In this document: in pieces, positions 8,378-43,078 of the stretch
How the letters are laid out: the number at the start of each line of letters is the position of its first letter
Position numbering within the stretch: the first letter of the stretch is position 1
DNA from: an uncultured delta proteobacterium
Lineage (GTDB): Bacteria > Desulfobacterota > Syntrophia > Syntrophales > UBA8958
Direction of reading: 5' to 3'
Assembly: GCA_903885795.1 (NCBI GenBank)
Contig: CAISJV010000052.1
Span: 4,592 to 68,591, forward strand
Length of the DNA stretch: 64,000 nt
Made by a program: the position numbers and the translations under genes
The notes under the pieces: model-generated
What the model was told of the DNA's origin: nothing
Databases searched by the model: none
What the model saw: the letters and a program-made list of their open reading frames with translations, nothing else

Positions 8378-8393
8378 AGAATGACTGTGCAAG

Positions 8394-8428
8394 CCATCCC
8401 CTACCCTCCTCTTGAAGGAGAGGGAGAG
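8394..8428. repeat. CCATCCCC REP-like hairpin (copy E2)
   Basis: ccatcccctaccctcctcttgaaggagagggagag. It contains the spurious TTG start of the ORF-track thiN ORF. Confidence 0.75.
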
Positions 8429-8474
8429 CATAACGCAGTTGATTTATGAACATAAGAAGGTATTTTCAGGAGTA

Positions 8475-9131
8475 ATGGCGAAGGAAACCATTGTAATTAT
8501 TGCAGGTTCCGCTATCGAGGACATGGAGTTTCTCCGGCAGCGAATCGAAGCGGCAGCCCCGACGGCCGTTCTATGCGCCGACGGCGGGGCTCGTTATGCC
8601 CGTGCCCTCGGTATTATCCCCGACCTGATCATCGGGGACATGGATTCTCTGGAAGACGATTTGTTGCGGCATTTTGAAGAAAAAGGGGCTGCCGTTGCCC
8701 CTTATCCAGTCCGGAAGGACGAAACGGATACCCAGTTAGCCCTCACACGGGCGATGGCGATGAATCCCCAGGAAATCCTTATTTTTGGGGCGCTGGGGAA
8801 ACGCCTGGATCATACCCTGGCCAATCTCGGCCTTCTGATGATCGGTCTGGAAAAGGGCGTTCCCATAAAACTTCTCGATGAAGATTGTGAAGTCTTTGTC
8901 ATGGCGGGTGCAGCAACCGTCAGCGGGGAAAGGGGACAGACTGTATCCATCTTTCCCTGGGGAGGGGAAGCCCGTCATATTACCCTGGAAGGCTTCGAAT
9001 ATCCACTGGAAGATGCGACCATGATTCTGGCCCGTCCCTATGGGATCAGCAACCGGTTGACGGCGGAGGAGGGGCGGATCAAGGTCGATGAGGGCTGTTT
9101 ACTTGTGATTCACTATTTGAGTACACGATAA
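8475..9131 (+). CDS. thiN: Thiamine pyrophosphokinase
   Basis: ...CADGGA..., ...IGDMDS..., ...KDETDTQLAL..., ...GALGKRLDH... are TPK motifs. I prefer the ATG at 8475 (MAKETIVII), with AGGAG just upstream. Confidence 0.85.
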   Translation: MAKETIVIIAGSAIEDMEFLRQRIEAAAPTAVLCADGGARYARALGIIPDLIIGDMDSLEDDLLRHFEEKGAAVAPYPVRKDETDTQLALTRAMAMNPQEILIFGALGKRLDHTLANLGLLMIGLEKGVPIKLLDEDCEVFVMAGAATVSGERGQTVSIFPWGGEARHITLEGFEYPLEDATMILARPYGISNRLTAEEGRIKVDEGCLLVIHYLSTR

Positions 9132-9141
9132 GGAGTAAGTT

Positions 9142-9987: not shown

Positions 9988-10026
9988 TTTTTGCGAGAAC
10001 GTCACAATTGGAGAGGTAGAGGAAAT

Positions 10027-11310
10027 ATGATGACTCAAATAGAACAAGCGCAACAAGGCGTTATCACCGAGGAAATGAAGATCTGCGCGGGACAGGAGGG
10101 GCGCGACCCCGAATTTATCCGCGCCGGGGTGGCGGACGGAACCATCGTTGTCATCCGTAATAACGGACACGGAAAGATCCCGCCTATAGCCATCGGCAAG
10201 GGCCTGCGGACCAAGATCAACGCCAATATCGGGACCTCCAAAGACCGGGTGGATGTGCAGGAAGAGCTTGAAAAGGTGCGGGTCTGCGCCGCCGCCGGGG
10301 CAGACACGATCATGGATCTTTCCACGGGAGGCGATATCCGGGCTATCCGTCAGGCCATCGTTGCGGCGTCGCCCCTGATAATTGGCACTGTCCCCATTTA
10401 TCAGGCGGCAGTGCGCCTGCTCGCTCAGGGCAAAGCTATTGTGGAGATGACCGCCGACGACATGTTTCAAGTAATCGAGGAAAACGGCCAGGATGGCGTG
10501 GATTTCATCACCGTCCACTGCGGGGTGACCCGGCGCAGCGTCGCCGCCGTCGAGGCCCAGGGCCGCCTGCTGGGAATCGTCAGCCGGGGAGGTTCCTTTA
10601 CCGCCCACTGGATGGCCTGCAATGACAAGGAAAACCCCCTGTATGAACAATACGACCGCCTGCTGGAGATTGCCCGGAAATACGAGATGGTTCTGAGCCT
10701 GGGAGACGGCCTGCGGCCGGGATGCCTTGCCGATGCCACGGACCGGGGGCAGATCCAGGAACTGATCCTGCTGGGGGAACTGGCAAAAAGGGCAAAGGAC
10801 CGGGGCGTCCAGGTAATGATCGAAGGGCCGGGGCACGTTCCCCTCAAGGATATTGAAAGCAACATCCTGCTACAGAAAAGAATCTGTGAAGGGGCCCCTT
10901 TCTACGTCCTCGGGCCGCTGCCGACGGACATCGCTCCGGGCTACGATCATCTCACTTCCGCCATCGGCGGCGCCATTGCCGGGGCGGCCGGGGCGGATTA
11001 TCTCTGCTACGTCACCCCGGCCGAACATCTCCGCCTGCCAACCCTGGCGGACGTCCGGGAAGGGGTCATTGCCTCCAAAATCGCGGCTCATATCGCCGAT
11101 TTAGCCAAGGGACTGCCGGGGGCGATGGACAAGGACCGGCGCATGGCGTCGTACCGGAAAGAATTCAACTGGCAGGGGCAGGTGGATGTATCCATCGATC
11201 CGGAACGAGCGGCGGAGCTCCTGGAAAAGAGCGCCAGCGCCAATGAAGAAGGCTGCACCATGTGCGGCGACTTGTGCGCTATTAAAATCGGCAAGATGAA
11301 AAATTCCTGA
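10027..11310 (+). CDS. thiC: Phosphomethylpyrimidine synthase (radical SAM)
   Basis: MMTQIEQAQQGVITEEMK..., ...TKINANIGTS..., ...DTIMDLSTGG..., and the C-terminal CTMCGDLC cluster motif. This is the short anaerobe-type ThiC. Confidence 0.95.
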   Translation: MMTQIEQAQQGVITEEMKICAGQEGRDPEFIRAGVADGTIVVIRNNGHGKIPPIAIGKGLRTKINANIGTSKDRVDVQEELEKVRVCAAAGADTIMDLSTGGDIRAIRQAIVAASPLIIGTVPIYQAAVRLLAQGKAIVEMTADDMFQVIEENGQDGVDFITVHCGVTRRSVAAVEAQGRLLGIVSRGGSFTAHWMACNDKENPLYEQYDRLLEIARKYEMVLSLGDGLRPGCLADATDRGQIQELILLGELAKRAKDRGVQVMIEGPGHVPLKDIESNILLQKRICEGAPFYVLGPLPTDIAPGYDHLTSAIGGAIAGAAGADYLCYVTPAEHLRLPTLADVREGVIASKIAAHIADLAKGLPGAMDKDRRMASYRKEFNWQGQVDVSIDPERAAELLEKSASANEEGCTMCGDLCAIKIGKMKNS

Positions 11311-11346
11311 CGGACAACCATCTCGAATGAACAAATGGAGGGCTCG

Positions 11347-11544
11347 ATGATTCAAAGTATGTGGGCGTTCGTCGTTGTCTCGGTAATTTTCTGGGCTGTT
11401 TTTTTTCTTCGGCCTCCCTTAACAGTGGAAAATGTAATTATGGGAGGTGTACCCTTAGCGTTTGTCCTGTTCTTCGGATACCGGTTCTGGAGGGCGAAAA
11501 AGGAGAACCCCCAGGCTTTGCCTGGTGATCACGATGACTACTGA
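11347..11544 (+). CDS. Small two-TM membrane protein (65 aa)
   Basis: MIQSMWAFVVVSVIFWAVFFL...GGVPLAFVLFFGYRFW... GGAGG lies 5 nt before the ATG at 11347. The ORF-track start at 11335 is also possible. Confidence 0.55.
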   Translation: MIQSMWAFVVVSVIFWAVFFLRPPLTVENVIMGGVPLAFVLFFGYRFWRAKKENPQALPGDHDDY

Positions 11545-11669
11545 TTCCGTTTCTAAATCAAAGCGCTATCTTCGTTGGCATCGGCAATCGGCTCCTCGAC
11601 GTATGAAAAATACGCCTCCGTCGCCTCTGCCTTGCCGCCTTGATTTCATCTTTGATTTAGAAACGGAAT
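11544..11669. repeat. 126-bp palindromic hairpin element B (perfect 20-bp terminal inverted repeats)
   Basis: attccgtttctaaatcaaag (11544-11563) is the exact reverse complement of 11650-11669. The central hairpin is GACGTAT-gaaaa-ATACGCCTC. It is homologous to element C (23772-23860). Confidence 0.9.
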
Positions 11670-11706
11670 GACATACTATCAGAGAAATGGCAGGGAGCGA
11701 TCCGTG

Positions 11707-13089
11707 ATGACGGCGACGATACCTGATAGCTTGACGGGGATGGGTCAAGGAGCACTCCATGTTGTGCGGACCCTGCGCAACGCCGGCCATGAAGCGTTTT
11801 TCGTCGGGGGCTGTGTTCGGGATCTTCTCCTGGGTGAGGTCCCTGATGATTACGATATTGTAACTTCCGCCCACCCGGATGTGGTTCAGACGCTCTTTCC
11901 CCGCACTTATCCCGTGGGGGTCAGTTTCGGTGTGATCCTCGTCAGCGAGGGCGACTTTCTCTATGAAGTGGCCACTTATCGGAAAGAGGCGGAATACACG
12001 GATGGCCGCCATCCCTCCCAGGTATCCTTCGCCACGGCGAAAGAGGACGTTTACCGACGCGACTTTACCGTCAACGGTCTCCTCATGGATCCCGAAACTG
12101 GGGAGGCTGTCGATTATGTAGGCGGTGTAGCGGATATTGAAAGACGGGTGATCAGGACCGTCGGCAATCCGGAAGAAAGATTTGCCGAAGATCACCTGCG
12201 GATGCTCCGGGCCGTCCGTTTTGCCGCCAATCTCGGTTTTCTCATCGACGTGGAAACATTAGGGGCGATCAAACAGCATTCGGCGGACATTGCCAGGGTC
12301 AGCGCCGAACGGATACGGGAGGAAATGACCCGGATTCTCATCGGTCCCGGCCCCCGTCAAGGCATGGAATTGTTGCAGGCTACGGGACTATTGTCGCAAC
12401 TCCTTCCCGAAATCGAGGCTTTACGGGGGGTCAGCCAGCCGCCCCAGTTTCATCCCGAGGGGGACGTCTGGGAGCATACACTGACCATGCTCGCCCTGCT
12501 GCCCCTTGAAGAAAGACGGCATGATACGGAGGCCGGTGGCCGGTTGGCCTGGGCGGTCCTCCTTCATGATGCCGGCAAACCGGCAACACGCACGGAGAGT
12601 GAGACGGGGGTTCATTTCTATGGTCATGTGCAAAAGGGGGTAGAGATCGCCGCCGCAATCATGAGGCGTTTGAAGTTTTCCAAGGCGGATTTCGACGTTG
12701 TTCTGGCCCTCACCGAGAACCACATGCGTTTCATGCATGTTCAGGATATGCGGTCCAATACGGTGAAGAAGTTCCTGAGAATGCCCGATTTCGATCTCCA
12801 TCTGGCTCTCCACCGCCTCGATTGTCTGGGGAGCCACGGCCATCTCGACAATGACTTATTCTGCAGGGGAAAGCTCAAAGAACTGACGACGGAGGACCTG
12901 CGTCCCCCCCGGCTTATGACGGGCCACGATCTGCTCGCCCTTGGTTTCCAGCCCGGACCGCTGGTCAGGGAGATTCTGAACGCCCTTGAAGACGCCCAGC
13001 TCAACGGTGAGATTGCCACCGCCCAGGAAGCGCAGCAGCTTGTTATTTCCCGTTTTTTGCCAGGATCTGCCGTAAACGGTCATGAATGA
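11707..13089 (+). CDS. cca: CCA-adding tRNA nucleotidyltransferase with HD domain
   Basis: ...AFFVGGCVRDLLLG...DYDIVT..., ...RDFTVNGL..., ...LLHDAGKP... The start is uncertain. The ATG at 11668 lies inside repeat B, and the ATG at 11707 has GGGAG upstream. Confidence 0.85.
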   Translation: MTATIPDSLTGMGQGALHVVRTLRNAGHEAFFVGGCVRDLLLGEVPDDYDIVTSAHPDVVQTLFPRTYPVGVSFGVILVSEGDFLYEVATYRKEAEYTDGRHPSQVSFATAKEDVYRRDFTVNGLLMDPETGEAVDYVGGVADIERRVIRTVGNPEERFAEDHLRMLRAVRFAANLGFLIDVETLGAIKQHSADIARVSAERIREEMTRILIGPGPRQGMELLQATGLLSQLLPEIEALRGVSQPPQFHPEGDVWEHTLTMLALLPLEERRHDTEAGGRLAWAVLLHDAGKPATRTESETGVHFYGHVQKGVEIAAAIMRRLKFSKADFDVVLALTENHMRFMHVQDMRSNTVKKFLRMPDFDLHLALHRLDCLGSHGHLDNDLFCRGKLKELTTEDLRPPRLMTGHDLLALGFQPGPLVREILNALEDAQLNGEIATAQEAQQLVISRFLPGSAVNGHE

Positions 13090-13450
13090 GCTGTGAGGCG
13101 ATATTGCTGCCCCCCATGCCGACCAAAATTGACACGTCGGTCTTGTCTTTTTCCTTGAACTCCACCTCGAAGGTAACCTTTTCACCTTGAAGCGTGGCGA
13201 TTATGCTCGCTTTGCCGATTTTAACCTGTTTTTCGTTGGTTACGGCCTTCATGTCCTTGAGGGTGTCGTCGATTCCCTTGCAGACCGTATCGAAAGAATA
13301 AGGGTACGAGCCAATCATGTAACCGCTGGAACGAACAAATTGCCCGTCCTGCACGCCCATAGATTTTCCTCCGACCACGACGCCCCCTTCACAGCCCGCC
13401 AGCAGCCCGATGATGAAGATCAAGGTGATGATAGAAATAGCTTTTTTCAT
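13043..13450 (-). CDS. Lipoprotein of unknown function
   Basis: Strong RBS GGAGGAGG. Lipobox MKKAISIITLIFIIGLLAG-C. The 3' end overlaps the cca 3' end by 47 nt. Confidence 0.75.
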   Translation of the reverse strand: MKKAISIITLIFIIGLLAGCEGGVVVGGKSMGVQDGQFVRSSGYMIGSYPYSFDTVCKGIDDTLKDMKAVTNEKQVKIGKASIIATLQGEKVTFEVEFKEKDKTDVSILVGMGGSNIASQLIHDRLRQILAKNGK

Positions 13451-31692: not shown

Positions 31693-33327
31693 TCATTTAC
31701 ACTTTTCCTTCGCTCTCACCCGTTCTTGGAAGCGCTTGAGCAGAAGATCTTCCTGTAATTGATCTTTCCCTTTGTATTCAAAGTAGAATTCATTTTCCAC
31801 CTCCTGAATCGTTTCGAGATAGTTCGACCGGGCAACTTCCCTTACCACCATTCTTTGGGCCAGTCTATTTTCAAATCTCTGAAACACTGGCATGAGTTTT
31901 CTGTGTTTTCCGAAAATCCTGACAGTATCAGTTAAAGAGGTGGCCGCCATATTAAATTCCATAATCTTCTTCTGGAGGGTGGATGGTTTCATGTATTTGG
32001 GGTAGAATATTACAAATTCACCATTACAGTAATCGATTACTGCCCGTCCAAAACGGGCAAATTCATCCCAGAGAAAATAGCGGTGTGCAGGCATAAACTG
32101 ATCCGGTGATTCGGGCATCTGACTTAATGGAGAAACTCTCCATTTTTCTATTCCAGTCTCGTTGATAAATCGATGAATTCTCTCGAACGTATCTAAATCG
32201 TCTGTGTCATATCCCACAATAAAGAGGCCAGTTATTGCAAACCCATGTTCATGAAATATATTCATGGCCTTTTTAATAGTATCGTAAGATATCTTCTTCT
32301 TGAAATCATTCAGAGTCTGGTCAGTCAGGGACTCGATCCCGACTGACAGACTGCATACGCCTGCTTCCCGCATAACCGCGAGCAGCTTGCGATCTTCGCA
32401 GATATCAGCCCGCACCAGAACGGTCGCCTTTATAGGTGTTGCGTTTTTGGCGAGAGCCTCGAAAAACACATGTGACTTTTTGTCAAAGGGAAGAGCCGCC
32501 GTCGGATCTTCGAACATTACCCTGCGAATGTTTGATCTCGCAACGTACTCTTGGAGATACGCCAAGGCACTTTCGATGCTGCGCCGTCGATAGTTATTGC
32601 CCTGCGAATGGCGGGATGTGGGGCAAAAAGAACAGTTGTAAGGGCATCCTCTCGTACCTTGGAACATAAGCATCGGAAGCATCTTTTTACTCATGATCCA
32701 GGCTAGAGGAAGGTGTCTAAAAATAAACCCCTGAACAGTCTCATCATAGCCGACAACCAAAGAAAGATCGGGTATATTATCAAAAAATTCACAGACTTGA
32801 TTTTTCTTGAGATAGTCATTGAAGATATCGTCGGTAGCATGCCCCTCCGATTCAAGGGCCTTTAACAGTTGGAGGAAGGCCCCTTCAGATTCGCCCCGCA
32901 GTGTGTAATCGAAAACCGGAGAAAGGTGTGAGTCGCCGCCGAATGAGATATGCTCTCCACCAAGCACCGTAACTATCTGGCGGCCAAGCTTTTCAGCTTC
33001 CCTCTTGACAGCTATTGCAATTTCCTCGGCCCTGGTAATTGCAGCACTCTTACAGGAAAAGCCGACCACATCGAACGCCTGGGCAAGATCTTGAGGTGAC
33101 ACACGAAGGCCTAGTTCTTCGTTGAATAGTCGGACAAAATATCCTGCCTGCCGGGTTACGGAAGCTACCTGCAAAGGCCCATACCGCTGCGTCCAGAGAG
33201 CACCGGCGAGGCAGAATAAGCGCTTGGCCGGAACAACAATGGCAATACGAAGATTTGGAAGAAAAACCTTATTCATTCCGAGCCAGTCCATTCCGGTGAA
33301 AAACTCACGTCTAATCTTCGCATACAC
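31693..33327 (-). CDS. B12-binding-domain radical SAM protein (class B)
   Basis: N-terminal Rossmann-like B12-binding region (...DVVGFSCKSA...VTVLGGEH...). Radical SAM motif GTRGCPYNCSFCPT. The start may be M18 (33276). Confidence 0.8.
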   Translation of the reverse strand: MYAKIRREFFTGMDWLGMNKVFLPNLRIAIVVPAKRLFCLAGALWTQRYGPLQVASVTRQAGYFVRLFNEELGLRVSPQDLAQAFDVVGFSCKSAAITRAEEIAIAVKREAEKLGRQIVTVLGGEHISFGGDSHLSPVFDYTLRGESEGAFLQLLKALESEGHATDDIFNDYLKKNQVCEFFDNIPDLSLVVGYDETVQGFIFRHLPLAWIMSKKMLPMLMFQGTRGCPYNCSFCPTSRHSQGNNYRRRSIESALAYLQEYVARSNIRRVMFEDPTAALPFDKKSHVFFEALAKNATPIKATVLVRADICEDRKLLAVMREAGVCSLSVGIESLTDQTLNDFKKKISYDTIKKAMNIFHEHGFAITGLFIVGYDTDDLDTFERIHRFINETGIEKWRVSPLSQMPESPDQFMPAHRYFLWDEFARFGRAVIDYCNGEFVIFYPKYMKPSTLQKKIMEFNMAATSLTDTVRIFGKHRKLMPVFQRFENRLAQRMVVREVARSNYLETIQEVENEFYFEYKGKDQLQEDLLLKRFQERVRAKEKCK

Positions 33328-33655
33328 TTTCCCGTCTGTTCCGCCTCCAGAACCATGAACCGCTTCTGATCCTCATTCCACTGGCGGCGATCTTTTCCCC
33401 GATTTTCTGCCTATGGGGATTCCATACATCAATCAACAAAGACCACCATACCTCGCCGTCAAAATCATCACGCCGCCGGAACAGAAGGTAGCAAACTGTT
33501 CCATGTCTCCTCGATTCCAACATGAATGTCCTTCTCTTAATGCCTTTTCCCCTCTCTCCTACCTGTCCGCCAAATCGGGCGTGAACCGTATTGGATATCC
33601 CAATTGGTTTGTGCAGTCGGTACCGGATGCACAACTTCCGGTCCGCAGTTCACGA

Positions 33656-34630
33656 TTAGTAATGGCGTTCACATAGCACCCGCAGCCATTGCAGACATTT
33701 AGGCTTCCCTATTTTAATCAAAGGCTTCTTTGGGTCCGCGAAACACCCGGTGAATGGAAATACCTTTAGAGAATAAATTAGGTTTGACATAGATAAACGA
33801 TCATATTGAACCTGTACACTAAGATAGCGGGCGTATTTATTATAAATGTCGACCTCCTTAACTAGCATATGGGGCGGTAAAGCGGACAGATCGGTTTTGG
33901 GGCTCTCCTCGCAGTTCAGGTTTTGACTATGCAGCCGGATGACATAATGTTTATCTTCTGTCTCAAGGATCGCTTTCCAGCGCCACAAACCCGCCGGCAC
34001 AAAGGATGCCCCTTTCGTTTCTTCCAGCAGATTCATGAACTTGTCTTTTATTCTTTTTTTAAAATCTATTCTGCTCAGAACCATCAGCAGAATATGAACC
34101 GTAAGGACTAGGTACGTTATCAAGGCGACATGGAATCTTTCCGGCCCGAACCGCTCGGGAAATAAAAGTTTCAGAAACATGACAATAATCCCGAGTATCA
34201 ATATGAAGGAAAAAGCGAAATCAAATTCGAAAAGAATATCGGTAGCCACCCGGTCTTTTTTAGGCCACCATAGGGAAGTACCAAAGGGATTTAAAATATC
34301 TACCAGGAGATGAACTATTGTACCCAATAAACACCAGAACCAAAGTGTTAAAACAGAATCAGCCGGTTGCAGCCCGACAAGAAACTTGAAAAGGAAAGAC
34401 CCTCCGTAGATGATTAAGGATAGTAGAAAAGAAAATGCAGGGGCCAGCAATAGCGAGTGTGTATAGGTCCGGTGCTTATCCAGATATCCAATGGTCCCGG
34501 GGCCACCGTGAACCAGATCGATATCCGGCAGCAAACTGCCACCGACGGCAGCCGCCAGGATATACCCGTCAAACGGTTGAAAGCTTAACCCGATGATGCT
34601 TCCCATCAGGATATGATCGAATATGATCAT
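33656..34630 (-). CDS. Membrane-bound metal-dependent hydrolase (YdjM/DUF457-like) with extra C-terminal soluble domain
   Basis: MIIFDHILMG..., ...LLPDIDL..., ...HRTYTHSLL... and 5-6 TM segments. A ~130-aa C-terminal region has no motif I recognise. Confidence 0.65.
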   Translation of the reverse strand: MIIFDHILMGSIIGLSFQPFDGYILAAAVGGSLLPDIDLVHGGPGTIGYLDKHRTYTHSLLLAPAFSFLLSLIIYGGSFLFKFLVGLQPADSVLTLWFWCLLGTIVHLLVDILNPFGTSLWWPKKDRVATDILFEFDFAFSFILILGIIVMFLKLLFPERFGPERFHVALITYLVLTVHILLMVLSRIDFKKRIKDKFMNLLEETKGASFVPAGLWRWKAILETEDKHYVIRLHSQNLNCEESPKTDLSALPPHMLVKEVDIYNKYARYLSVQVQYDRLSMSNLIYSLKVFPFTGCFADPKKPLIKIGKPKCLQWLRVLCERHY

Positions 34631-34893: not shown

Positions 34894-37800
34894 CTATTGA
34901 AACTTCACTAAAGCCTCCCTAGCCCTATTCAAAAATGGGCCGGCATTGCATTTCTCAAATACCTCCACAGATCTAAAAATACACTGACGGCCTTTCTGAG
35001 TTTGCCCTTTTAACCTGTACAAGAACCCCAAATCAAAATAAGTCTCTCCCAGAAGGTTTTTGGCACCGATCTCTTGCGCCATCTCGATTGCCTTCAGAAA
35101 ATGGGATTCCGCCTTTTTGAAAGCAAAAGGAAGGGTTTTAATCAGGAATCCAAAGTTTTTTAGCAGGAACGAAAGGCCGGAATTTTTATTCTCTCCTGCT
35201 CCCGGGACAAGCTGGGTATAAATCTGCCCCAGGATGTGTTTGCAGACCACATAACGGTACTTCAGTCCGCAATCGTGATATTCCCGTGTGACTTCCTCTA
35301 TCATTGCCACGCCATTTTCTAGGTCCCCGTTAATGACCGTGATTATTCCCGAATACAACTTGGCTACCGTACCATGAGGAAATGAATGACATGTGTCTGT
35401 CAATACTGTCAATTCATCAAGAATTTTTTGTGCGTCCTGGTATTTACCTGCAGCGACACACGACATTCCCCATATCGTTGTTGCTGTGATTTTTATCAAA
35501 GGGTCCAAAGCAAAGTGGTAAGATTTCTTTATGTTATCTATCGCAGACAGAAAATCACCGGAGACAAGGTCGGAAAACGTAAGGCAGAGATAACCATCGG
35601 ACAGGCATTCACTTCGTAAGTGCATTTTTGCGAACTCAAGGATCCTTTCCCCTATTTCCTTGGACTCAACAACATCTCCCCTGAAATAGCGGGCGAACCC
35701 GATATAGAAAGAGATATGTCGAAAGAAATCCGGATCGGTTTTATATGATTCAAGCTCCTGTGCCTTCCTGCCGCATTCAATTGCCTCGTCCAGCATGCCA
35801 AGGTCAGCGTAGCACCAAGGGAGGAAAGTATACGCAGAAGCTATGACCTTTTCGTTGCCGATCTGCTCGCCTATTTCGAGGGCCTTCCTTAAATAACTTA
35901 GCGCTTCGGGCAGCTTATTGCTCCAGTTCATGGCTGCCCCGATCCGCGCATAGAACATACCCGACCTCTCTCCATCTCCCAGAGAGATGACCATAGACTC
36001 ATGATCTTTCAGCAAGTCTATGAGCTCATAGAAATGGCAACGGCGGTAAAAAATAACAGCCCATTGGATGAGTATGTCGACTAGGAGGGCAGTTTCCTCC
36101 TTGGAACGTTCGGAAATACCTTTAACGATATTAAAGGCTTCTTTATAATGCTGGTGGGCTTCGTCCAGGGCGTACCGGGCAAGGCTCTTCTCGGCCGACT
36201 TTACGAGGTATTCAACTGCCTTTGTACCGGATGGACCATTCTTGTAATGAAAAGCCAGAGACTCGTAGAAGTCAGAGAGCCTTTCCTGGAATAATTCCTC
36301 CATTACCCGACCGGTTTTTTCATGTATCCTCTGTCGCTCTTTTTTAAGCAGCTCATTATATACCACTTCCTGAGTAATCACATGCTTGAAGATGTATTCC
36401 AGGTTGGGCTCAACCGCTTTGGTCTGTATAAGATCCATCCGCTCCAGCCCTGAGAGGCTCTCGTCAATGTGCTCTTTGAGCTCCGTGGTACGCTTCAGTA
36501 TATCATACGGGAAAGACCTTCCGATTACCGAAGCCTCTTGAAGGATCTTCTTGGTGAATGGTTCTAATCGGTCAAGGCGCGCCGAAATCACCCCCTGCAC
36601 GGTAGGAGGAATGTTTTCCGTCAATATGGGTTTGTCCACGCACCATTTGCCGTTCCTTTTCACCAGGGCATTTGTTTCGAGAAGAGATACAACGATTTCC
36701 TCGATGTAAAAGGGGTTTCCTTCCATCTTACTCAGGACGTAATTCTTTAGTTCAGCAGGAATGTCCTTTGATTTCAGAATGGACTCCACCATTTTCTGTG
36801 CATCTTCAGGTTTAAGGTCCTTGAGCACGATCTCTTGAGTTTTACCAGTAAATGTGCTGAAGGCTGGGCGGGATACGCATAAAAACAAAGCTGGATGCTG
36901 ATGGCCAAAGATAATGCTCTTCAACAGCTCGATTGAGGAGGGATCGGCCCAATGGAGGTCCTCTATGCAGATTATAGTCGGCCCTCTCCGGCACAGATTA
37001 GCAATTATCTCATTTACGGCCTCGTATAGCCCTGCTTTCCGCGATTCGGGGCTAATCCGATCAAATTCTGGATGCTGGATGGAATAGAGACTTGACACAT
37101 AAGGGACAATATCCTCTTTCGCCCCCATCAGCGATCTTATCGAGAATACCACCTTGTTTTTAATGTTTTCTAGCAGATCACCCTCTTTAATATTCCATGC
37201 ACGACTCAGCAGGTCCGTCAATGGGTAATAGGTTGTGTTTTGGGTATATGTGTAACAATGCCCTTCAAACCACTGGATTTCGTGTGGGATCAGGGATGAC
37301 TTAAACTCCTCAACAAGACGGCTTTTGCCTGTTCCGACATCGCCAATTATCGAGATGATTGAACCCTTCCCCTTTTTGAGCTTTTCAACAGCGTCCGACA
37401 ATTGAGCCATTTCCGAATCACGGCCGATCAAGGCCGCCCTGAATTCTGGCTTCCCGTGTGTTTTTACCGGCTCTTTTTTAGCGGACAGAACCCTGTAAAT
37501 CTGCACCGTCTCTGTTTTGCCTTTGAGAATTGTTGGCTCAAACTTTTCGAAATCGAAGTATCCTTCCGTTTGCCTGTGAGTTTCCGGCCCTACAACAATT
37601 TGGTCCGCTTTAGCCATAGCCGCAAGCCGGGAAGCAACGTTGATTGCATCGCCGAGGACACCGTGGGTACCGTGTTTTAGGCTGACTCCACCTGTAACGA
37701 CAGGGCCGGTGTTGATGCCTGTATGCATTGCAAACGGCTGCCCGTTATTTTCAACAGGGGACTTTAAACCTTTTATTAATTCATGTATCTCTAAGGCGGC

Positions 37801-38160
37801 TTTGATTGCCCTTACAGGATCATCCTCATGGGACTCAATTGCACCGAAAAGAGCCATCGTTCCATCCCCGATAAACTTTTCAACGAAACCACCGTACTTT
37901 ACAACTAAACGGGCAGTCTCTCCGAAAATTCCGGTCATTATTGCCTTTAGTTCTTCAGGGTCGAGTTTTTCGGACAAAGATGTATAGCCGGAAAGGTCGC
38001 AAAACAATGCCGTTACAAATTTGCGCTTGCCTTCTGCTACAGGATGGGAGGCGGCTTTTTCCTGGACGGATAGATCTGTAAAACTTCTACCGCAATGATC
38101 ACAGAAATTTGCCGAATCCCGATTTTCGAATTTACACCCCGGGCATAGCACCATCTTCAC
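34894..38160 (-). CDS. Zinc-ribbon / class III adenylate-guanylate cyclase / AAA(STAND) ATPase / TPR multidomain protein (1088 aa)
   Basis: CPGCKFEN...FCDHCG. Cyclase core FVTALFCDLSGYTSL...KFIGDGTMALFG...GDAINVASRL. P-loop GDVGTGKSRL. The long C-terminal region is TPR-like helical repeats. The start is GTG. Confidence 0.85.
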   Translation of the reverse strand: MKMVLCPGCKFENRDSANFCDHCGRSFTDLSVQEKAASHPVAEGKRKFVTALFCDLSGYTSLSEKLDPEELKAIMTGIFGETARLVVKYGGFVEKFIGDGTMALFGAIESHEDDPVRAIKAALEIHELIKGLKSPVENNGQPFAMHTGINTGPVVTGGVSLKHGTHGVLGDAINVASRLAAMAKADQIVVGPETHRQTEGYFDFEKFEPTILKGKTETVQIYRVLSAKKEPVKTHGKPEFRAALIGRDSEMAQLSDAVEKLKKGKGSIISIIGDVGTGKSRLVEEFKSSLIPHEIQWFEGHCYTYTQNTTYYPLTDLLSRAWNIKEGDLLENIKNKVVFSIRSLMGAKEDIVPYVSSLYSIQHPEFDRISPESRKAGLYEAVNEIIANLCRRGPTIICIEDLHWADPSSIELLKSIIFGHQHPALFLCVSRPAFSTFTGKTQEIVLKDLKPEDAQKMVESILKSKDIPAELKNYVLSKMEGNPFYIEEIVVSLLETNALVKRNGKWCVDKPILTENIPPTVQGVISARLDRLEPFTKKILQEASVIGRSFPYDILKRTTELKEHIDESLSGLERMDLIQTKAVEPNLEYIFKHVITQEVVYNELLKKERQRIHEKTGRVMEELFQERLSDFYESLAFHYKNGPSGTKAVEYLVKSAEKSLARYALDEAHQHYKEAFNIVKGISERSKEETALLVDILIQWAVIFYRRCHFYELIDLLKDHESMVISLGDGERSGMFYARIGAAMNWSNKLPEALSYLRKALEIGEQIGNEKVIASAYTFLPWCYADLGMLDEAIECGRKAQELESYKTDPDFFRHISFYIGFARYFRGDVVESKEIGERILEFAKMHLRSECLSDGYLCLTFSDLVSGDFLSAIDNIKKSYHFALDPLIKITATTIWGMSCVAAGKYQDAQKILDELTVLTDTCHSFPHGTVAKLYSGIITVINGDLENGVAMIEEVTREYHDCGLKYRYVVCKHILGQIYTQLVPGAGENKNSGLSFLLKNFGFLIKTLPFAFKKAESHFLKAIEMAQEIGAKNLLGETYFDLGFLYRLKGQTQKGRQCIFRSVEVFEKCNAGPFLNRAREALVKFQ

Positions 38161-38447
38161 CGACCGGTTCAGATTTGAAAAGCTGTTTTAATCCCGCGGC
38201 AATTGAACATAACCACTTCTTTGCCACAATGCCTGCATTGAGGGCAAATCGATGCCCAGAATGGCTCTATTTAGTCACCGGAGTAATAATTTGGCAAATA
38301 ATTATTTTTAAATTATGTGTTTGATACACGCCGGACGACGTAAAATATTAATAGACAAATTGTCAAGGATATTTTACATTACTAAACAGATCACACTATA
38401 AAAAGCAGTTAGTAAGGAAGATATTAAAATGATCAGGAGCTTATATT

Positions 38448-39137
38448 ATGGATGACGCAGATTCGCCAAGCAGGCCGCTGAAAACCCCAAACCCCAAACT
38501 GGTTGACTATCACAGATTGAAGAACGAAATGCTCACTGGTGACCTGCTGCAATGGAAGAAAGATGCTTGTTCAAGGTGGGTTTACCGTGGGCTAATTGGT
38601 TCACAAGTTGACCATTCATCCCTGATCATCCGTTTTAAAGAGTATGAAAATGCCGTTAGTCAAATTGAAACTTATGAAAAGAGCTCAAATCCCACAAGAA
38701 GAGACATCTACAATATGGAAGAAACTTGGATAAAAGGCGCGCACCTGGATCTGCTGTCCCACTTGCTGGAGGGATATGATGGAGAAGTCTGGCTTTACCG
38801 ACTGAAGGACGATTGGAGTCCCGGCGAAAGAAAGAAGATAGGAATAGCGCTCCTTGAACACGTGGGAACGCCTTTTGATGCGTGGTCAGTGCTAAAGAAT
38901 TTCATTTTTAATATTTGTCGACGTTTTATCACGAATATCCGATTCCGCCATGATTGGAGGGTAGAGGAGCGCAGACTTTTTTGTTCCGAGTATTGCTATC
39001 TGGCATATAAGTCCGCGAGGGGAGACCTTATCGTCGATAAAGATTTAGAGATTGTGTTTAGAGGACCACCTCATCCCATGGACCTCCCCAAACTCGGAAT
39101 TTTTATGGAACCAATAAAATTATATCCTTCAAAATAG
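38448..39137 (+). CDS. Hypothetical protein, possible permuted papain-fold (YiiX / peptidase C92-like) amidase
   Basis: GDLLQW...GSQVDHSSLII (His block) precedes ...RLFCSEYCYLAYK (Cys block), which is the permuted order. Assignment is from motif memory only. Confidence 0.4.
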   Translation: MDDADSPSRPLKTPNPKLVDYHRLKNEMLTGDLLQWKKDACSRWVYRGLIGSQVDHSSLIIRFKEYENAVSQIETYEKSSNPTRRDIYNMEETWIKGAHLDLLSHLLEGYDGEVWLYRLKDDWSPGERKKIGIALLEHVGTPFDAWSVLKNFIFNICRRFITNIRFRHDWRVEERRLFCSEYCYLAYKSARGDLIVDKDLEIVFRGPPHPMDLPKLGIFMEPIKLYPSK

Positions 39138-39152
39138 CAGATGGTAATTCCC

Positions 39153-40628
39153 TTACCTGGCTTCCATGATTTTCTTATAAATGGCCGTCGTCAGTGCTTC
39201 CGGCTCCGTGTCCAGTCCCTCCCAGAGCGCTTTCCGGCAATCTTTGTAGGCCTTTATGGCTTCCCCTTGCATATGTCTGTTCGAGTAAAGTGTCATCAGC
39301 CGCTGGTAAACCTGCTCTGAAAGGGGATCGATTTGAATGATCTTTTTGTAACATTCGATGGCTATCTTTGAGGTGCCGCGTTTTTCCTGGATGCCGGCTA
39401 TCCTGAATAAAAGATTGATATAAAGTTTTCGCAATTCTTCTCTCTTTGCATCAATCCACGAAGTGTAAAGCTCTTCGGAAAGGAAATCGCCCTTATAAAG
39501 ATCCAGGGCGTTGTTGTAAAGGAAAAGAGCCGCCTCCGTGTCTCCCTCCCTTTCCTTCTTTTCACCTCGTCGGCAAAATGACAAAAAATCATCGAGATCG
39601 GTTTTGCATAATTCCTCATCCAGATACATTACATTAGCCTTGAGGTAGACGTATGAGGATCCAAAGGCCTTGTCCATTTCAGGCTCCAATACTTTTCTCA
39701 AGCGGTGCAGGGTTATCTTGAGATTCCTTTCTCCTGATTGAGCTGTGACCTCCGGCCAGAGAGCCTCTATGATCTGATCTTTAGGCACCTGACGCGACCC
39801 ATAGGTGACAATGGCCTTTAAGAGAAACTTGGGCAGGTGGCCGCCCCACTCTCTTTCTTCCATGACAGTCAGGCCGCGATAGAGGCGAAACCCCCCTAAG
39901 GTCTCTATGTTTATCCGGCAAAGACCGGAACGATATATCGCTTGTCTGACTTTCATCGCCTTCCTTAAAGCCTTTGCGTCTTTAGGGTCCCCAGAGCTCG
40001 CATTATTATTCTGAAGATCGAAGTCGGGAGGTAACTGGAAAGGTTCATCCTTTTCCTGTTTCCCGGCCCCCTCTTTCTTTGTGAGCCGAGGCAGCATGGA
40101 TTGAAGGTATGAGAAGGCTTGAGACAGTTGACGGTTTTTTCTGTCCAGCTCCGCTAACATTTTTGCTTCGGAGGTACGCATCCTCTGACTGAGTATCCGT
40201 GCCATTGCATAGCCGATAGAAGGGCATTGATGAATCAGCCCATCCAGGGCTTCCCGGGTCATTTCCAACAACCGCACCGATGAACCCGTGCGCACGCTTG
40301 CGCTGCGCGACCTGTCGGGAGTGAGCAGGCACATCTCGCCCACATAATCGCCGGGATCACAAATGTTCACCAATTGCTCATCGGGAGTGCCCAGGGCTTT
40401 GATGATTTCCAACTGCCCCTCTAGGATAATGTAGAACCGGTCGCCGTGATCTCCCTCACGAAAGAGGATTGTATCCTCGGGAAATACAAGTTGCCGCAGG
40501 ACAGCTATCAAATTTTTTATTTCACGTTTCGGAAGCGGGGACAGTAATGGGTTTTGGGAAATTAACTTTTCGTACATTACACTACGGCGCCGGTTGAGAT
40601 GTATCACTTTGGTCATTCCTCCCGCCAT
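39153..40628 (-). CDS. cNMP-binding domain + SARP/BTAD (winged-helix + TPR-like) transcriptional regulator
   Basis: ...FPEDTILFREGDHGDRFYIILEGQLEI...GEMCLL...RSASV... (cNMP domain). Then ...IETLGGFRLYRG...EALWPE...NLKITLHRLRKVLE... (OmpR/SARP wHTH) and ...YKGDFL....W....RE.L...Y... (BTAD). The start is uncertain (40628 or 40577). The ORF-track 5' extension is rejected. Confidence 0.75.
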   Translation of the reverse strand: MAGGMTKVIHLNRRRSVMYEKLISQNPLLSPLPKREIKNLIAVLRQLVFPEDTILFREGDHGDRFYIILEGQLEIIKALGTPDEQLVNICDPGDYVGEMCLLTPDRSRSASVRTGSSVRLLEMTREALDGLIHQCPSIGYAMARILSQRMRTSEAKMLAELDRKNRQLSQAFSYLQSMLPRLTKKEGAGKQEKDEPFQLPPDFDLQNNNASSGDPKDAKALRKAMKVRQAIYRSGLCRINIETLGGFRLYRGLTVMEEREWGGHLPKFLLKAIVTYGSRQVPKDQIIEALWPEVTAQSGERNLKITLHRLRKVLEPEMDKAFGSSYVYLKANVMYLDEELCKTDLDDFLSFCRRGEKKEREGDTEAALFLYNNALDLYKGDFLSEELYTSWIDAKREELRKLYINLLFRIAGIQEKRGTSKIAIECYKKIIQIDPLSEQVYQRLMTLYSNRHMQGEAIKAYKDCRKALWEGLDTEPEALTTAIYKKIMEAR

Positions 40629-41016
40629 CTTCTTGTCCCACCGCGTGTGGAATCGTAAGACATGAAATCTCCTGTTTACATGCGTAAACATACCATAATT
40701 TGCATCAGTGGAAAGATTTTTTTTCTTCGCAGATGATCGCAAAGGCATGGTTATCTGAACGGTGCTTTCGGTGCAAATATGTTCCCGTTTTTGCAGCAAG
40801 GTATTTTTTGAAAGCATGCCGGGCCTGCTCGCCGTTTCCAAATCGAAATCTGTAGCAAGCCCTCCGTACCGCTGCCAAAAGGGATAAATAAATATTTTCC
40901 GCCACTCCCATTTTGGCCTGTACGTTAATCTGCAATATCATCAAATAGTTAACATCGCATAAGTATTTTGTTCGCCCGTTTTTAGAGTAACCATTTATTA
41001 ACCTTGGCTATGTTAC

Positions 41017-41067
41017 TTCCTCTCCGCAGGCAGATGAACGGCGCCTTCTCCTGCAGGCAAAGAGGAA
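41017..41067. promoter_or_regulatory. Nested inverted/direct repeat region upstream of small-protein gene P1
   Basis: TTCCTCT...AGAGGAA encloses GCAGG...CCTGC. It can also be read as direct repeats TCTCCGCAGGCA / TCTCCTGCAGGCA about 27 nt apart. Confidence 0.3.
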
Positions 41068-41118
41068 CTAACCCGCAATAGGGGTTTGGGGAAAAGTAAT
41101 CTCAGATAAACACTTTAA

Positions 41119-41492
41119 ATCTATCCATGGGAGGGACACAATGCTTACACATGACAATGTTGCCAAAAAAAAGACGGAAGTTTTTAATAAGATTGAAGAC
41201 GCAGCGAGAAGAGGCGATGTTCAGAGAGTTGTTTACGCTGTCGAAACCCTGAAAGACATCGAAAAACAAAGCAGAAGGCTTGATAGCTCTCAAAAATATC
41301 GCATAGACGCCGGATTTGTTCTCTGATTTCCGCAGTTCCTCGCGGATTCACGGCGGGAACCAATTCGACGACACAATTGCTTCAAGGTGCTGTCAAACGG
41401 GGTCGGAGTAGCGCCACCCGACCCCACCTCCTAAAAAAATAGGAGGGGCGCCTAAATCGGGAAGAATTGGAGGTAATAAGGAGGGATATAAC
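41119..41492 (+). repeat. Segmental duplication copy 1 (RBS + P1 gene + ~165-nt conserved 3' flank)
   Basis: Aligns end to end with 41818-42187. I counted about 10 percent nt divergence in the CDS and about 7 percent in the first 99 nt of the flank. Confidence 0.9.
41141..41326 (+). CDS. Small helical protein P1 (61 aa), novel paralog family
   Basis: GGGAGGG RBS. MLTHDNVAKKKTEVFNKIEDAARRGDVQRVVYAVETLKDIEKQSRRLDSSQKYRIDAGFVL. It is 87 percent identical to P3, with 9 synonymous codon differences. Confidence 0.75.
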   Translation: MLTHDNVAKKKTEVFNKIEDAARRGDVQRVVYAVETLKDIEKQSRRLDSSQKYRIDAGFVL

Positions 41493-41636
41493 CTGCCAAG
41501 TGTTAAGTCTCTTCGCACGAACCGAATAAAGGCTTTTTTTATGCGAAGCGATTCAGGACTGACGGGCTTTGGTGCGGACGCTTCAGAGGACTGTTAATCA
41601 GAAAAAACATCCAACACATGAAAGGGAGGGGACAAA

Positions 41637-41804
41637 ATGGAGAAACTTTTACAAGCAAAAATGGATGCTCTTAAAAAGATTGAAGAAGCGGTGAAAAGAG
41701 GGGACTCCCAATCGGTCATTCACAACGCAAGGACGATTGAGAGCGTTGAAAGGAAGTGTAGGCAGATGGAAAATGAGGAGGTTGTCAGGTGGGGAGTTTC
41801 TTGA
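41637..41804 (+). CDS. Small helical protein P2 (55 aa; below ORF-track cutoff), divergent paralog of P1/P3
   Basis: Hand translation gives MEKLLQAKMDALKKIEEAVKRGDSQSVIHNARTIESVERKCRQMENEEVVRWGVS*. RBS AAGGGAGGGG. It aligns with P1/P3 (KKIE-A-RGD-Q-V...TI...E...). Confidence 0.65.
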   Translation: MEKLLQAKMDALKKIEEAVKRGDSQSVIHNARTIESVERKCRQMENEEVVRWGVS

Positions 41805-41817
41805 AAATGCACGAAAG

Positions 41818-42187
41818 ATCTATTCACAGGAGGGATACAATGCTTTCACATGACAATATTGCCCAAAAGAAGACGGAAGTTTTTAAAAAGATTGAAGACG
41901 CGGCAAGAAGGGGCGACGTGCAGAGAGTTGTTTATGCCGTCGAAACCATAAAAGACATCGAAAAACAAAGCAGAAGGCTTGATAACGCTCAAAAATACGA
42001 CATAGACGCCGGATTTGTTCTCTGATTTCCGCAGTTCCTGGCGGATTCACGGCGGGAACCAATTCGACGACACAATTGTATCGCGGTGTTGTCAAACGGG
42101 GTCGGGGTAGCGCCACCCGACCCCACCTCCTAAAAAAGGTGATCGCCCAAATCAGGAAGAGTTGGGGATGATGAGGAAAGATATAAC
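41818..42187 (+). repeat. Segmental duplication copy 2 (RBS + P3 gene + conserved 3' flank)
   Basis: See copy 1. Confidence 0.9.
41840..42025 (+). CDS. Small helical protein P3 (61 aa)
   Basis: AGGAGGGA RBS. MLSHDNIAQKKTEVFKKIEDAARRGDVQRVVYAVETIKDIEKQSRRLDNAQKYDIDAGFVL. It starts 35 nt after P2. The ORF-track start at 41789 overlaps P2. Confidence 0.75.
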   Translation: MLSHDNIAQKKTEVFKKIEDAARRGDVQRVVYAVETIKDIEKQSRRLDNAQKYDIDAGFVL

Positions 42188-42248
42188 GGGGACATTAATG
42201 ATCAATCAAGCCACAAAACAAACGACACGGAAATGAAGGAGAGTCGCA

Positions 42249-42752
42249 ATGTTTGTTCAGGAGCTTTATGGAGCGGATGATTTACAGGATGGGCGCTTGT
42301 TGGATGAAATCTACGATTTCTGGGACCAGCAGGATAAGCGGGCAATTTGGCTGCGTTTTGGATGTTTTCGGCTTCCTAAAAAGGAAGATTATGAAAATAT
42401 ATTTCGTCGGGCCATGATGGTGGTAGTTGTAAGGGACGAATCTGGAAAATTGATCGGTTATTCGGAGGGATGCCGGTGCAGGGACAATGAACGGCACGTG
42501 GAATTGGGGCTGGCCGTCGATAAGGAATATCGGCGCAACGGCGTGGCTATGGAAATGGTGATGACAATGTGTCGGGAATGTTCACACCAGGGCATTGAGA
42601 AGGCAGAGGCTTACATCATGCCTGAAAACCTGACTATGACGGCCCTCGTAAGAAAAATCATGAATATCCTGCCGGTTCGGCTAAAATTCGAGGACGGCAG
42701 TTTTCACGCCCTCATCGATCCAAAGAAGGCCCCAGCGCCGATCGCGTCTTGA
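42249..42752 (+). CDS. GNAT family acetyltransferase (167 aa)
   Basis: ...VELGLAVDKEYRRNGVAMEMVMTMCRECSHQGIEKAEAYIMPEN... is the acetyl-CoA binding core. AAGGAGAG RBS. Confidence 0.7.
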   Translation: MFVQELYGADDLQDGRLLDEIYDFWDQQDKRAIWLRFGCFRLPKKEDYENIFRRAMMVVVVRDESGKLIGYSEGCRCRDNERHVELGLAVDKEYRRNGVAMEMVMTMCRECSHQGIEKAEAYIMPENLTMTALVRKIMNILPVRLKFEDGSFHALIDPKKAPAPIAS

Positions 42753-42987
42753 GGCGTCTGGTCGGACATCAGCGTAGTCGCGCAGTTAAAAATTACTGCA
42801 GGGGTTCATCATTTCTATTCCCTAAGAAACAAGAAGTTGCGCGTAACATAACCACCCAGAAAAATCACCCTTCCAAAGTTGTATTTTTTACCTGTTGTCA
42901 TCAAAATAGTATAGAATCCGTTGAAGTGATATGGAAAGAGCTATTCTCCTTCCATGATGCACAGTCCTTCCACCCATCGAAAAAACT

Positions 42988-43024
42988 CGCCCTAACCCCA
43001 GCCCTCTTCCTGCGGGAGAGGAGA
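42988..43024. repeat. REP-like hairpin (copy E5, divergent)
   Basis: cgccctaaccccagccctcttcctgcgggagaggag. Confidence 0.5.
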
Positions 43025-43078
43025 TTTTGGAACTTTCGAGAACACGTCAAATAACGAAATTTATTGACAAGTGCCGAT

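Follow-up and report, generated by a model that had tools for sequence, protein, structure and literature searches.

A SARP-type regulator with a cyclic-nucleotide-binding domain, encoded beside a class III sensor cyclase in an uncultured Syntrophales bacterium

A 64,000-nucleotide stretch of DNA from an uncultured delta proteobacterium of the Syntrophales (contig CAISJV010000052.1, positions 4,592 to 68,591; hereafter the window) encodes a regulator in which a predicted binding domain for cyclic nucleoside monophosphates (cNMPs) is joined to the DNA-binding unit of SARPs (Streptomyces antibiotic regulatory proteins). A sensor protein with a class III nucleotide cyclase domain is encoded 993 nt away. 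Both genes are read from the minus strand and enclose a small gene on the plus strand, and they are the only cNMP-binding gene and the only cyclase-domain gene of the window. On the other side of the regulator lie the divergent genes of three small proteins, P1, P2 and P3, and of a GNAT acetyltransferase. With a confidence slightly above even, we favor a circuit built from known parts, in which cyclic AMP (cAMP) acts on the SARP and the SARP on the peptide operon. A first-pass annotation of the sequence had described the two proteins as writer and reader of a cyclic nucleotide lying about 1 kb apart; the distance and the domain assignments of both proteins hold.

A SARP-type unit behind a cNMP-binding domain

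The regulator has 474 residues and is composed of a cyclic-nucleotide-binding domain, a long C-helix, a disordered linker, a winged helix and a BTAD domain. Its open reading frame (ORF) was called from 39153 to 40841 on the minus strand. When it is aligned with 34 homologues, the protein begins at MYEK (position 40577); the start at 40628 given by the first-pass annotation is too far upstream. Pfam detects cNMP_binding (PF00027; 68.6 bits, cut-off 27.5) and BTAD (PF03704; 84.7 bits, cut-off 22.1), while Trans_reg_C (PF00486), at 20.4 bits, stays below its cut-off of 26.2.

The phosphate-binding cassette, GE...R[ST]A..R, is present as Gly80-Glu81, Arg91-Ser92-Ala93 and Arg96. Among 35 family members Gly80 and Arg96 are invariant, and conservation is 90% or higher for Glu81, Arg91 and Ala93. 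A profile of these 35 members matches the cAMP/cGMP-binding domains of PKA, PKG and CRP over positions 4–147 (E ~1e-18 to 1e-33) and residues 50–284 of AfsR (chain 8hvr_I) over positions 227–472 (E 1.9e-19). The AlphaFold model, with a mean predicted local distance difference test score of 82, is composed of a β-roll, a 40-residue helix (119–160), a disordered linker of ~35 residues (163–196), a winged helix and a helical bundle. Structural comparison with Foldseek matched the N-terminal half to the nucleotide-binding domains of CRP, GlxR and PKG (root-mean-square deviation (rmsd) ~2 Å) and the C-terminal half to the SARP unit of AfsR (8k60 and 8hvr; template modeling score 0.77, rmsd ~3.7 Å) as well as to EmbR. 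The long C-helix, which is CRP-like, probably dimerizes the nucleotide-binding domain.

The combination of PF00486 and PF03704 serves as a working definition of a SARP (PMC10663231). Judged by profile and predicted structure, which support both the winged helix and the BTAD domain, the regulator is structurally a SARP. The NCBIfam CRP model matches the nucleotide-binding domain alone (52.8 vs 266), and the regulator falls outside the CRP family because its C-terminal half is a winged helix with a BTAD domain and has no CRP helix-turn-helix. The protein is a SARP-type unit behind a canonical cNMP sensor. In a literature search that paired SARP or BTAD with a cyclic-nucleotide-binding domain, no paper on this architecture came up.

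The family comprises ~90 clusters at 90% identity, with proteins of 430–505 residues, each carrying PF00027 and PF03704. All named clusters come from metagenome-assembled genomes of Syntrophales, Syntrophaceae, Syntrophobacteraceae or Thermodesulfobacteriota. Approximately full-length matches in 185,579 species-representative genomes were found at six loci: three in Syntrophobacteraceae and one each in Syntrophales, Desulfarculales and an "uncultured delta proteobacterium". Among the matches listed by a metagenome scan with the alignment of the regulator, most resembled it in single domains only.

Some MalT-like STAND/TPR proteins also end in this SARP module. One such protein, of 1114 residues, has an N-terminal MalT-like STAND ATPase/TPR part and a C-terminal SARP unit 52% identical to that of the window regulator (locus L105). 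In this cluster (939–8474) it is followed by a small receiver-like gene and then by a 1213-residue Zn-ribbon/cyclase/AAA/TPR protein that is 38% identical to the window cyclase.

A sensor cyclase with a predicted cAMP product

The cyclase ORF encodes 1088 residues from a GTG at 38160; the database version starts at an ATG at 38154 and has 1086 residues. Pfam detects Guanylate_cyc (PF00211) at residues 47–218 (77.4 bits, cut-off 21.9, E 1.4e-21), AAA_16 at residues 244–417 (75.9 bits, cut-off 32.6) and TPR_12 in the C-terminal region (57.2 bits, cut-off 30.1). Matches to TPR_2, TPR_MalT and TPR_1 were sub-threshold, as was the zinc ribbon (DZR) at residues 6–27. The ATPase motifs are intact, with a Walker A GDVGTGKS (273–280) and a Walker B ICIED (397–401). 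The TPR region is presumed to be the sensor or a protein-interaction part.

The nearest solved structure to the cyclase domain is that of Synechocystis Cya2 (2w01, E 1.2e-26), and its E488K variant, 6fht, was also matched. Alignment to Cya2 and CyaB, together with a comparison of orthologues, indicates that the metal-binding Asp55 and Asp99 and the transition-state Asn174 and Arg178 are all retained. The two specificity positions are occupied by Lys95, which aligns with Glu488 of Cya2, and by Gly167, at which Cya2 also has Gly. We read them by the purine-specificity rule of Lys with Asp or Thr for adenine and Glu with Cys, Ser or Gly for guanine. A single E488K change converts Cya2 from a guanylate into an adenylate cyclase (PMC5995499). 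Because Lys95 stands where this change makes Cya2 an adenylate cyclase, the product is predicted from sequence to be, most likely, cAMP. The substrate-specifying residues, from which it had been suggested that the nucleotide could be predicted, thus point to cAMP at the first of the two positions. A search for covariation between the cyclase type (Lys or Glu) and the RSA/RTA motif of the regulator found none.

More than 6500 relatives share the architecture of this cyclase, and more than 100 of them are 46–50% identical to it across the full length. It is an ordinary member of a large, very common and uncharacterized family.

A candidate operator in front of P1

The intergenic regions between regulators and small genes were searched by k-mer for heptamers that recur at a distance of roughly one or two turns of the helix. 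GTAACCT-like repeats occur in 12 of 15 such regions, and 11 of the 15 have an exact GTAAC-N6-GTAAC core whose two halves start 11 bp apart. A search of all fetched loci placed an exact box directly downstream of the cNMP-SARP gene in 14 of them. The box, GTAAC(C/T)T-N4-GTAAC(C/T)T, always has the orientation of the small gene and lies 107–260 nt upstream of its start, and in most loci a −10-like TTTAAT follows ~7–8 nt after it. GTAAC and TAAC are the only contiguous invariant blocks of the alignment (A5), in which three scattered single columns are also invariant. The exact pattern has 23 matches in the 1.80 Mb of fetched loci, compared to 0.5 ± 0.7 in dinucleotide shuffles. Further copies adjoin SARP-only homologues at two loci (L104 and L052). 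The box spans the Syntrophales branch, with regulators 66–85% identical to that of the window, and was not found beside members of 37–62% identity.

The window carries the variant GTAACCA-N4-TTAACCT, which ends 137 nt before the ATG of P1. Its core, GTAACCATTTATTAAC (40987–41002 on the plus strand, 139 nt before the ATG), is the only match with at most one mismatch in the 64 kb, and the box is conserved in L087. Heptamer repeats at 11-bp spacing near a −10 element are the classical layout of SARP sites. By this likeness the GTAACYT repeat is a candidate SARP-type operator, and, since the SARP-like layout stands before P1, P1–P3(–GNAT) are likely the direct output of the regulator. These genes were one of two outputs named by the first-pass annotation. 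The other, the amidase-like gene between cyclase and regulator (a Peptidase_C92, or C92, gene), has no repeat site before it. A relaxed search with KTWAC-N6-KTWAC in the surrounding island (31.6–43.1 kb) gave no further site, and none before the C92, cyclase or radical SAM genes; direct control of these three is therefore unsupported.

Compared to the corresponding region of L087/L088, the regulator–P1 intergenic region of the window contains an insertion of ~180 nt at ~40724–40905, between two conserved blocks.

The cyclase recurs beside the regulator within one subclade

We examined the flanking DNA of regulator homologues to at most 10 kb on each side, and less on short contigs. In the subclade of the window, delimited with a neighbor-joining tree and comprising regulators at least 73% identical, the regulator has a cyclase of the window type in domain architecture no more than 3 kb away, in four different arrangements, two of them with paralogous cyclases. 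A convergent C92 gene separates the two in the window and in L087/L088, where the cyclase is 88% identical to that of the window. Regulator and cyclase are directly divergent in L085 (cyclase 59% identical). In L086 the cyclase, a paralogue 28% identical to that of the window, is directly upstream and co-directional, and in L171 a gene for a cNMP-binding histidine kinase stands between the regulator and a cyclase paralogue of 33% identity. Over their full length the L086 and L171 cyclases are 27–28% identical, their best tblastn segments reaching 28.5% and 32.9%. The pairing suggested at first pass thus recurs, and it is confined to this one subclade.

The nearest cyclase orthologue outside the window-type arrangement is 65% identical and is found in L169. 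In the cluster there (4301–13414) it is accompanied by two cNMP_binding+GerE (LuxR-type) regulators, which flank a B12 radical SAM gene (59% identical to that of the window), and by two C92 genes. This is the same writer module with a reader that has a different DNA-binding domain. In L170 the cyclase orthologue (69%) has a C92 gene upstream. C92, radical SAM and YdjM genes form a module with which the cyclase is repeatedly associated. Where the context suffices (window, L087, L085 and L169), this module appears to retain a cNMP-binding transcription factor whose DNA-binding domain can vary. As a background, there are seven cyclase-domain matches in loci that were not fetched via a cyclase and have no subclade regulator; the full set of fetched loci, ~1.8 Mb, is centered on cNMP-binding or BTAD genes and biased towards cNMP-binding genes. 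The comparative evidence for a functional link between writer and reader is good; for exclusivity there is none.

Beyond the subclade, a weak and unrelated cyclase domain lies 7 kb from the regulator of L008. In L176, a member of the subclade, the upstream gene has no similarity to the cyclases. In L169, an extracytoplasmic function sigma/anti-sigma pair follows the cyclase cluster.

Proposed circuit and alternative readings

In the circuit that we propose, the Zn-ribbon/cyclase/STAND/TPR protein would be a cytoplasmic sensor whose TPR and ATPase part responds to a cue. The cue would switch on the homodimeric class III cyclase, which would most likely produce cAMP. Binding of the cyclic nucleotide to the N-terminal domain of the regulator would free or re-orient the C-terminal SARP unit, and this unit would occupy the two GTAAC(C/T)T-like heptamers at 40987–41004 and activate the divergent P1-P2-P3(-GNAT) operon. 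The domain architecture, the catalytic and nucleotide-binding residues, the SARP fold, the linkage within one subclade and the conserved operator-like repeat are established. From these we infer the identity of the nucleotide, gating by the ligand, DNA binding, activation and not repression, and the neighboring cyclase as the main source of the signal.

Several observations weigh against this circuit. Gly167, the second specificity residue of the cyclase, is neither Asp nor Thr. The paralogous cyclases of L086 and L171 have Glu, as in Cya2, at the position of Lys95, and that of L171 has Val in place of the catalytic Asn; because of these differences the nucleotide, or the activity, may differ between systems. 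The box of the window deviates at one position and is followed by a weak −10 element. The 14 box loci are evolutionarily related and therefore represent a phylogenetic footprint, not 14 independent events. Subclade lineages L172/173 and L175–177 show no cyclase on their short contigs, and regulators 37–67% identical to that of the window (L001–L008, L010, L011, L089 and L174) have no such cyclase in the flanks examined. Since regulator homologues occur with no cyclase nearby, the regulator does not need an adjacent one. No phosphodiesterase was seen in the island. Finally, because the cyclase family is so large, cyclases acting in trans are likely, and the private circuit suggested by the first-pass annotation is an overstatement.

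We consider a second reading possible, if rather unlikely. The cNMP-responsive SARP would read the cell-wide cAMP/cGMP pool, and the neighboring cyclase would belong to a separate C92/radical SAM/YdjM module and not be a dedicated partner. Whether or not a SARP is present, the cyclase is accompanied in L085, L169 and L170 by genes of the C92, radical SAM and YdjM types, and no GTAAC box precedes the cyclase or C92 genes. Most regulator homologues have no adjacent cyclase, and the family of more than 6500 members could offer many other sources of signal. However, the adjacency has outlasted four rearrangements and extends to the non-orthologous cyclases of L086 and L171, and the L169 module, which has no SARP, has other cNMP-binding transcription factors.

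The proposed circuit also depends on the N-terminal domain of the regulator binding a cyclic nucleotide. Members of the CRP/FNR superfamily sense ligands such as haem, 2-oxoglutarate or halogenated phenols, and a CRP/FNR-type fold that binds a ligand other than a cNMP, or nothing, would make the proximity of the cyclase irrelevant. We find this improbable given the conservation of Gly80, Glu81, Arg91, Ala93 and Arg96 in the phosphate-binding cassette, the best profile matches to genuine cAMP/cGMP-binding domains and the fold match to CRP and GlxR at an rmsd of ~2 Å. Least probable is an anti-phage system of the Pycsar/Pucsar type, in which a cNMP made upon infection would act on a cNMP-binding effector: STAND NTPases are common in defense systems, the island has a lower GC content than its flanks, and PADLOC models of PycC match the cyclase domain (best E 6.6e-13) and those of PycTIR the nucleotide-binding domain (1.4e-12), but these matches are generic, domain-level ones, weaker than those to Guanylate_cyc (1.4e-21), Cya2 (1.2e-26) and PKA (1e-33), Lys95 indicates a purine substrate, the output is a transcription-factor module with no TIR or transmembrane killing domain, and no other neighbor matches PADLOC defense models save for a weak radical SAM match. 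We therefore reject a defense-system identity.

Comparison with known systems

Like CRP, GlxR and Vfr, the regulator has an N-terminal cNMP domain with a canonical cassette and a long C-helix, and would be a nucleotide-gated one-component transcription factor. It differs in its output, which is a SARP unit attached through the ~35-residue disordered linker and not a CRP helix-turn-helix, and in its predicted target, a tandem direct repeat instead of a palindrome. With the actinobacterial SARPs (AfsR, EmbR, ActII-ORF4, DnrI and RedD) it shares the winged helix and BTAD fold, candidate heptamer repeats at 11 bp and a position adjoining genes that are probably under its control. The SARP unit is N-terminal in AfsR and EmbR, whereas that of the window regulator is C-terminal behind the sensor. 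The sensor is a cNMP-binding domain, in place of the NLR/STAND-type ATPase region of AfsR, which also has TPR repeats, or the FHA domain of EmbR. Further differences are the host, which belongs to the Thermodesulfobacteriota (Syntrophales and relatives) and not to the Actinomycetota, and the repeat, GTAACYT here and TCGAGXX there. The view taken at first pass, that SARPs are normally without ligand domains, is inaccurate for large SARPs: AfsR carries a nucleotide-binding NLR/STAND-type ATPase region.

Among cyclases, the mycobacterial proteins Rv0386, Rv1358 and Rv2488c are composed of a cyclase, an ATPase, TPR repeats and a LuxR helix-turn-helix. They resemble the window protein in the order of a class III cyclase, a STAND-type P-loop ATPase and TPR-like repeats, and in being linked to a transcriptional output. 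Unlike them, the window cyclase begins with a Zn ribbon and lacks a DNA-binding domain, and its reader would be a separate protein; their helix-turn-helix is fused to the cyclase, with no cNMP reader implied. Cya2 shares the Gly of the second specificity position, and Lys95 corresponds to its E488K variant. However, Cya2 is a membrane CHASE2 receptor guanylate cyclase, whereas the window protein is a cytoplasmic one that combines its cyclase with a Zn ribbon, a STAND ATPase and TPR repeats.

The best NCBIfam match of the cyclase is TIGR03903, a TOMM kinase/cyclase fusion (E 1.6e-77 over cyclase and ATPase). Its score of 261.5 bits is well below the cut-off of 705.75, and the match begins at profile position 281, after the kinase domain. 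The nucleotide-binding domain of the regulator matches TIGR03896, cyc_nuc_ocin (5.3e-9; 36 vs a cut-off of 161). Both models are named for their association with ribosomal-peptide clusters, a parallel to the peptide genes of the island, which differs in having no kinase domain, cyclodehydratase or ABC transporter. CRP-like cNMP transcription factors adjoin some peptide-processing systems (Kaur et al. 2020).

The novelty of the regulator lies in its domain combination. Every part of the system is of a known domain type, and fusions of cNMP-binding domains to many outputs exist. The SARPs known so far activate antibiotic clusters in actinobacteria; if confirmed, the regulator would be the first SARP gated directly by a cyclic nucleotide, from an anaerobic syntrophic member of the Thermodesulfobacteriota, and would bring cyclic nucleotides and syntrophic bacteria within the scope of SARP regulation. 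To our knowledge, no cue has been identified for any of the thousands of members of the Zn-ribbon/cyclase/STAND/TPR family. The reader, the operator (two GTAACYT heptamers at 11 bp) and the P1 promoter would together allow a reporter assay for such a cue. The advance would be incremental unless the link to the peptides is functional, and it provides a lead to unannotated families of small proteins with conserved N-termini and variable tails.

Small proteins encoded next to the regulator

A strong Shine-Dalgarno sequence precedes each of P1, P2 and P3. In all three a helical N-terminal part of ~45 residues is conserved and the C-terminal tail is variable. A 300-nt sequence is repeated at 41119–41418 and 41818–42117 (90% identical, starts 699 nt apart), such that P1 recurs as P3 with P2 in between. 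The family of P1 is very small: a search of 1.84 billion proteins gave 6 representative clusters. Homologues of P1 adjoin regulators in L087/L088, L005 and L111.

The 300-nt repeat is followed by a 44-nt stretch at 80% identity (41449–41492 and 42144–42187). Together the two stretches contain ~170 nt of 3′ non-coding sequence, in which a pair of neighboring hairpins lies at ~41399–41447. The fold of 41327–41500 has a z-score of −2.96 and no Rfam match. The 5′ leader of P1 (41005–41140) is not unusually structured (z = −0.24), and Rfam gave nothing in 40500–42300 at E values up to 1.

Small unannotated genes are the more constant neighbors of the regulator and fall into three families, A, B and C (Table 1), family A being that of P1–P3. 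Up to five tandem copies of family B are present in L100. A small B12-binding protein is often encoded beside genes of these families, and the N-terminus of family B is also found fused to small B12-binding proteins (L085 12695, L002 11997). Searches of Pfam and NCBIfam gave no match for P1 or P2, and NCBIfam gave none for the family A, B and C proteins of other loci.

With their conserved N-termini and variable tails, the small proteins may be modified peptides. A role of the radical SAM enzyme in acting on them was considered and set aside for weak evidence: the radical SAM gene follows the cyclase and the peptide genes follow the regulator. The radical SAM gene of L169 occurs without such peptides, and L001, L002 and L005 have the peptides without such an enzyme. 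A more speculative extension, to which we give only a small chance, is a peptide-pheromone loop. P1–P3, which have a leader-like N-terminus and hypervariable tails, would be matured, possibly by the GNAT, C92, B12 radical SAM or YdjM protein. The cyclase would sense the product through its TPR/STAND part, cAMP would drive the SARP, and more peptide would be made. If true, the loop would give syntrophic bacteria a positive feedback of a quorum-like kind and would assign the first ligand to the Zn-ribbon/cyclase/STAND/TPR family.

Layout of the island and neighboring genes

Table 1. Coordinates of the regulator, the cyclase and associated features. Positions without a locus name are those of the window; L numbers denote other fetched loci.
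Feature	Position	Strand	Basis or remark
B12-binding radical SAM enzyme	31693..33327	−	Pfam Radical_SAM and B12-binding
YdjM-family membrane hydrolase-like protein	33656..34630	−	Pfam YdjM, 80.9 bits
Sensor cyclase (Zn ribbon, class III cyclase homology domain, AAA_16 STAND ATPase, TPR)	34894..38160	−	Pfam and homologues
C-terminal TPR region, ~residues 737–1088	34897..35952	−	TPR_12 match
AAA_16 STAND-type P-loop ATPase, residues 244–417	36910..37431	−	Pfam and motifs read from sequence
Cyclase homology domain, residues 47–218	37507..38022	−	Alignment to Cya2 and 6fht
Putative permuted papain-like amidase (Peptidase_C92/YiiX-like), 229 residues	38448..39137	+	Homologues
cNMP-binding SARP regulator, 474 residues	39153..40577	−	Pfam, homologue alignment, PDB profile matches, AlphaFold, Foldseek
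SARP unit: OmpR-type winged helix (~residues 220–326) and BTAD (326–470)	39168..39920	−	Pfam, AfsR profile match, Foldseek
Cyclic-nucleotide-binding domain and C-helix, residues 1–160	40098..40577	−	Conservation, profile and fold matches
Candidate operator, heptamer starts 11 bp apart	40987–41004	+	Regulator–P1 intergenic region
P1, 61 residues, tail ...YRIDAGFVL	41141..41326	+	ORF, sequence, homologues
P2, 55 residues, paralogue of P1 and P3, tail ...VVRWGVS	41637..41804	+	Sequence; close homologue P0257
P3, 61 residues, 87% identical to P1	41840..42025	+	Sequence comparison
GNAT acetyltransferase	42249..42752	+	Pfam Acetyltransf_1, 41.9 bits
Paralogous cyclases	L086 3711–7079; L171 1441–5109
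Exact boxes	L001 11600; L005 11494; L085 11560; L086 8803; L090 1773; L100 668; L111 450; L171 9559; L172 3915; L173 3772; L174 6288; L175 1715; L176 2773; L177 1929
Family A	P1–P3 in window; L087, L005, L111		Homologues of P1–P3
Family B	L002, L085, L086, L100		MYQxKNYETVNMILRNP...
Family C	L001, L085, L086, L090, L100, L171		Cysteine-rich, MAIVCYICKKEV...FGxGFVGxCC
Family B/C genes	L002 11607–11936; L085 11814–12415, 12695–13303; L086 8933–9196, 9726–9926; L100 792–2600; L001 11852–12094; L090 1816–2106; L171 9815–9952

The island (31.6–43.1 kb) has a GC content of 45–47%, compared to 52–57% in its flanks. It is bordered in the window by DapF and an aminotransferase on the left and by BioB, BirA and BioY on the right, and in L087/L088 its GNAT end meets a fragment of a KH-domain (Der-like) gene. 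The island therefore occupies different contexts in related genomes. The GNAT gene is co-directional with P1–P3, and its L087/L088 homologue, 81% identical, has the same position.

The amidase-like gene had been described as divergently transcribed. This is so relative to the cyclase, and the gene is convergent with the regulator. The window protein itself has no Pfam match; of its 16 aligned homologues, 12 are detected by PF05708 (best E 4e-8). The alignment shows no variation at His56 and Cys179, the candidate catalytic pair. C92 homologues stand beside the cyclase orthologues of L087, L085, L169 (where there are two) and L170. The YdjM gene is downstream of the cyclase and co-directional, and is kept with it in L085 (68%) and L087 (74%). 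Homologues of the radical SAM enzyme adjoin cyclase orthologues in L085 (75%) and L169 (59%).

Two ORFs between real genes, at 33311–33634 (minus strand, 107 residues) and 42749–43054 (plus strand, 101 residues), have no family match and are probably not genes. A tRNA search of the window found none. The only Rfam match of the whole window is a thiamine pyrophosphate riboswitch (RF00059) at 8153–8243 on the plus strand, with 64.6 bits against a gathering score of 54.3, which is unrelated to the circuit.

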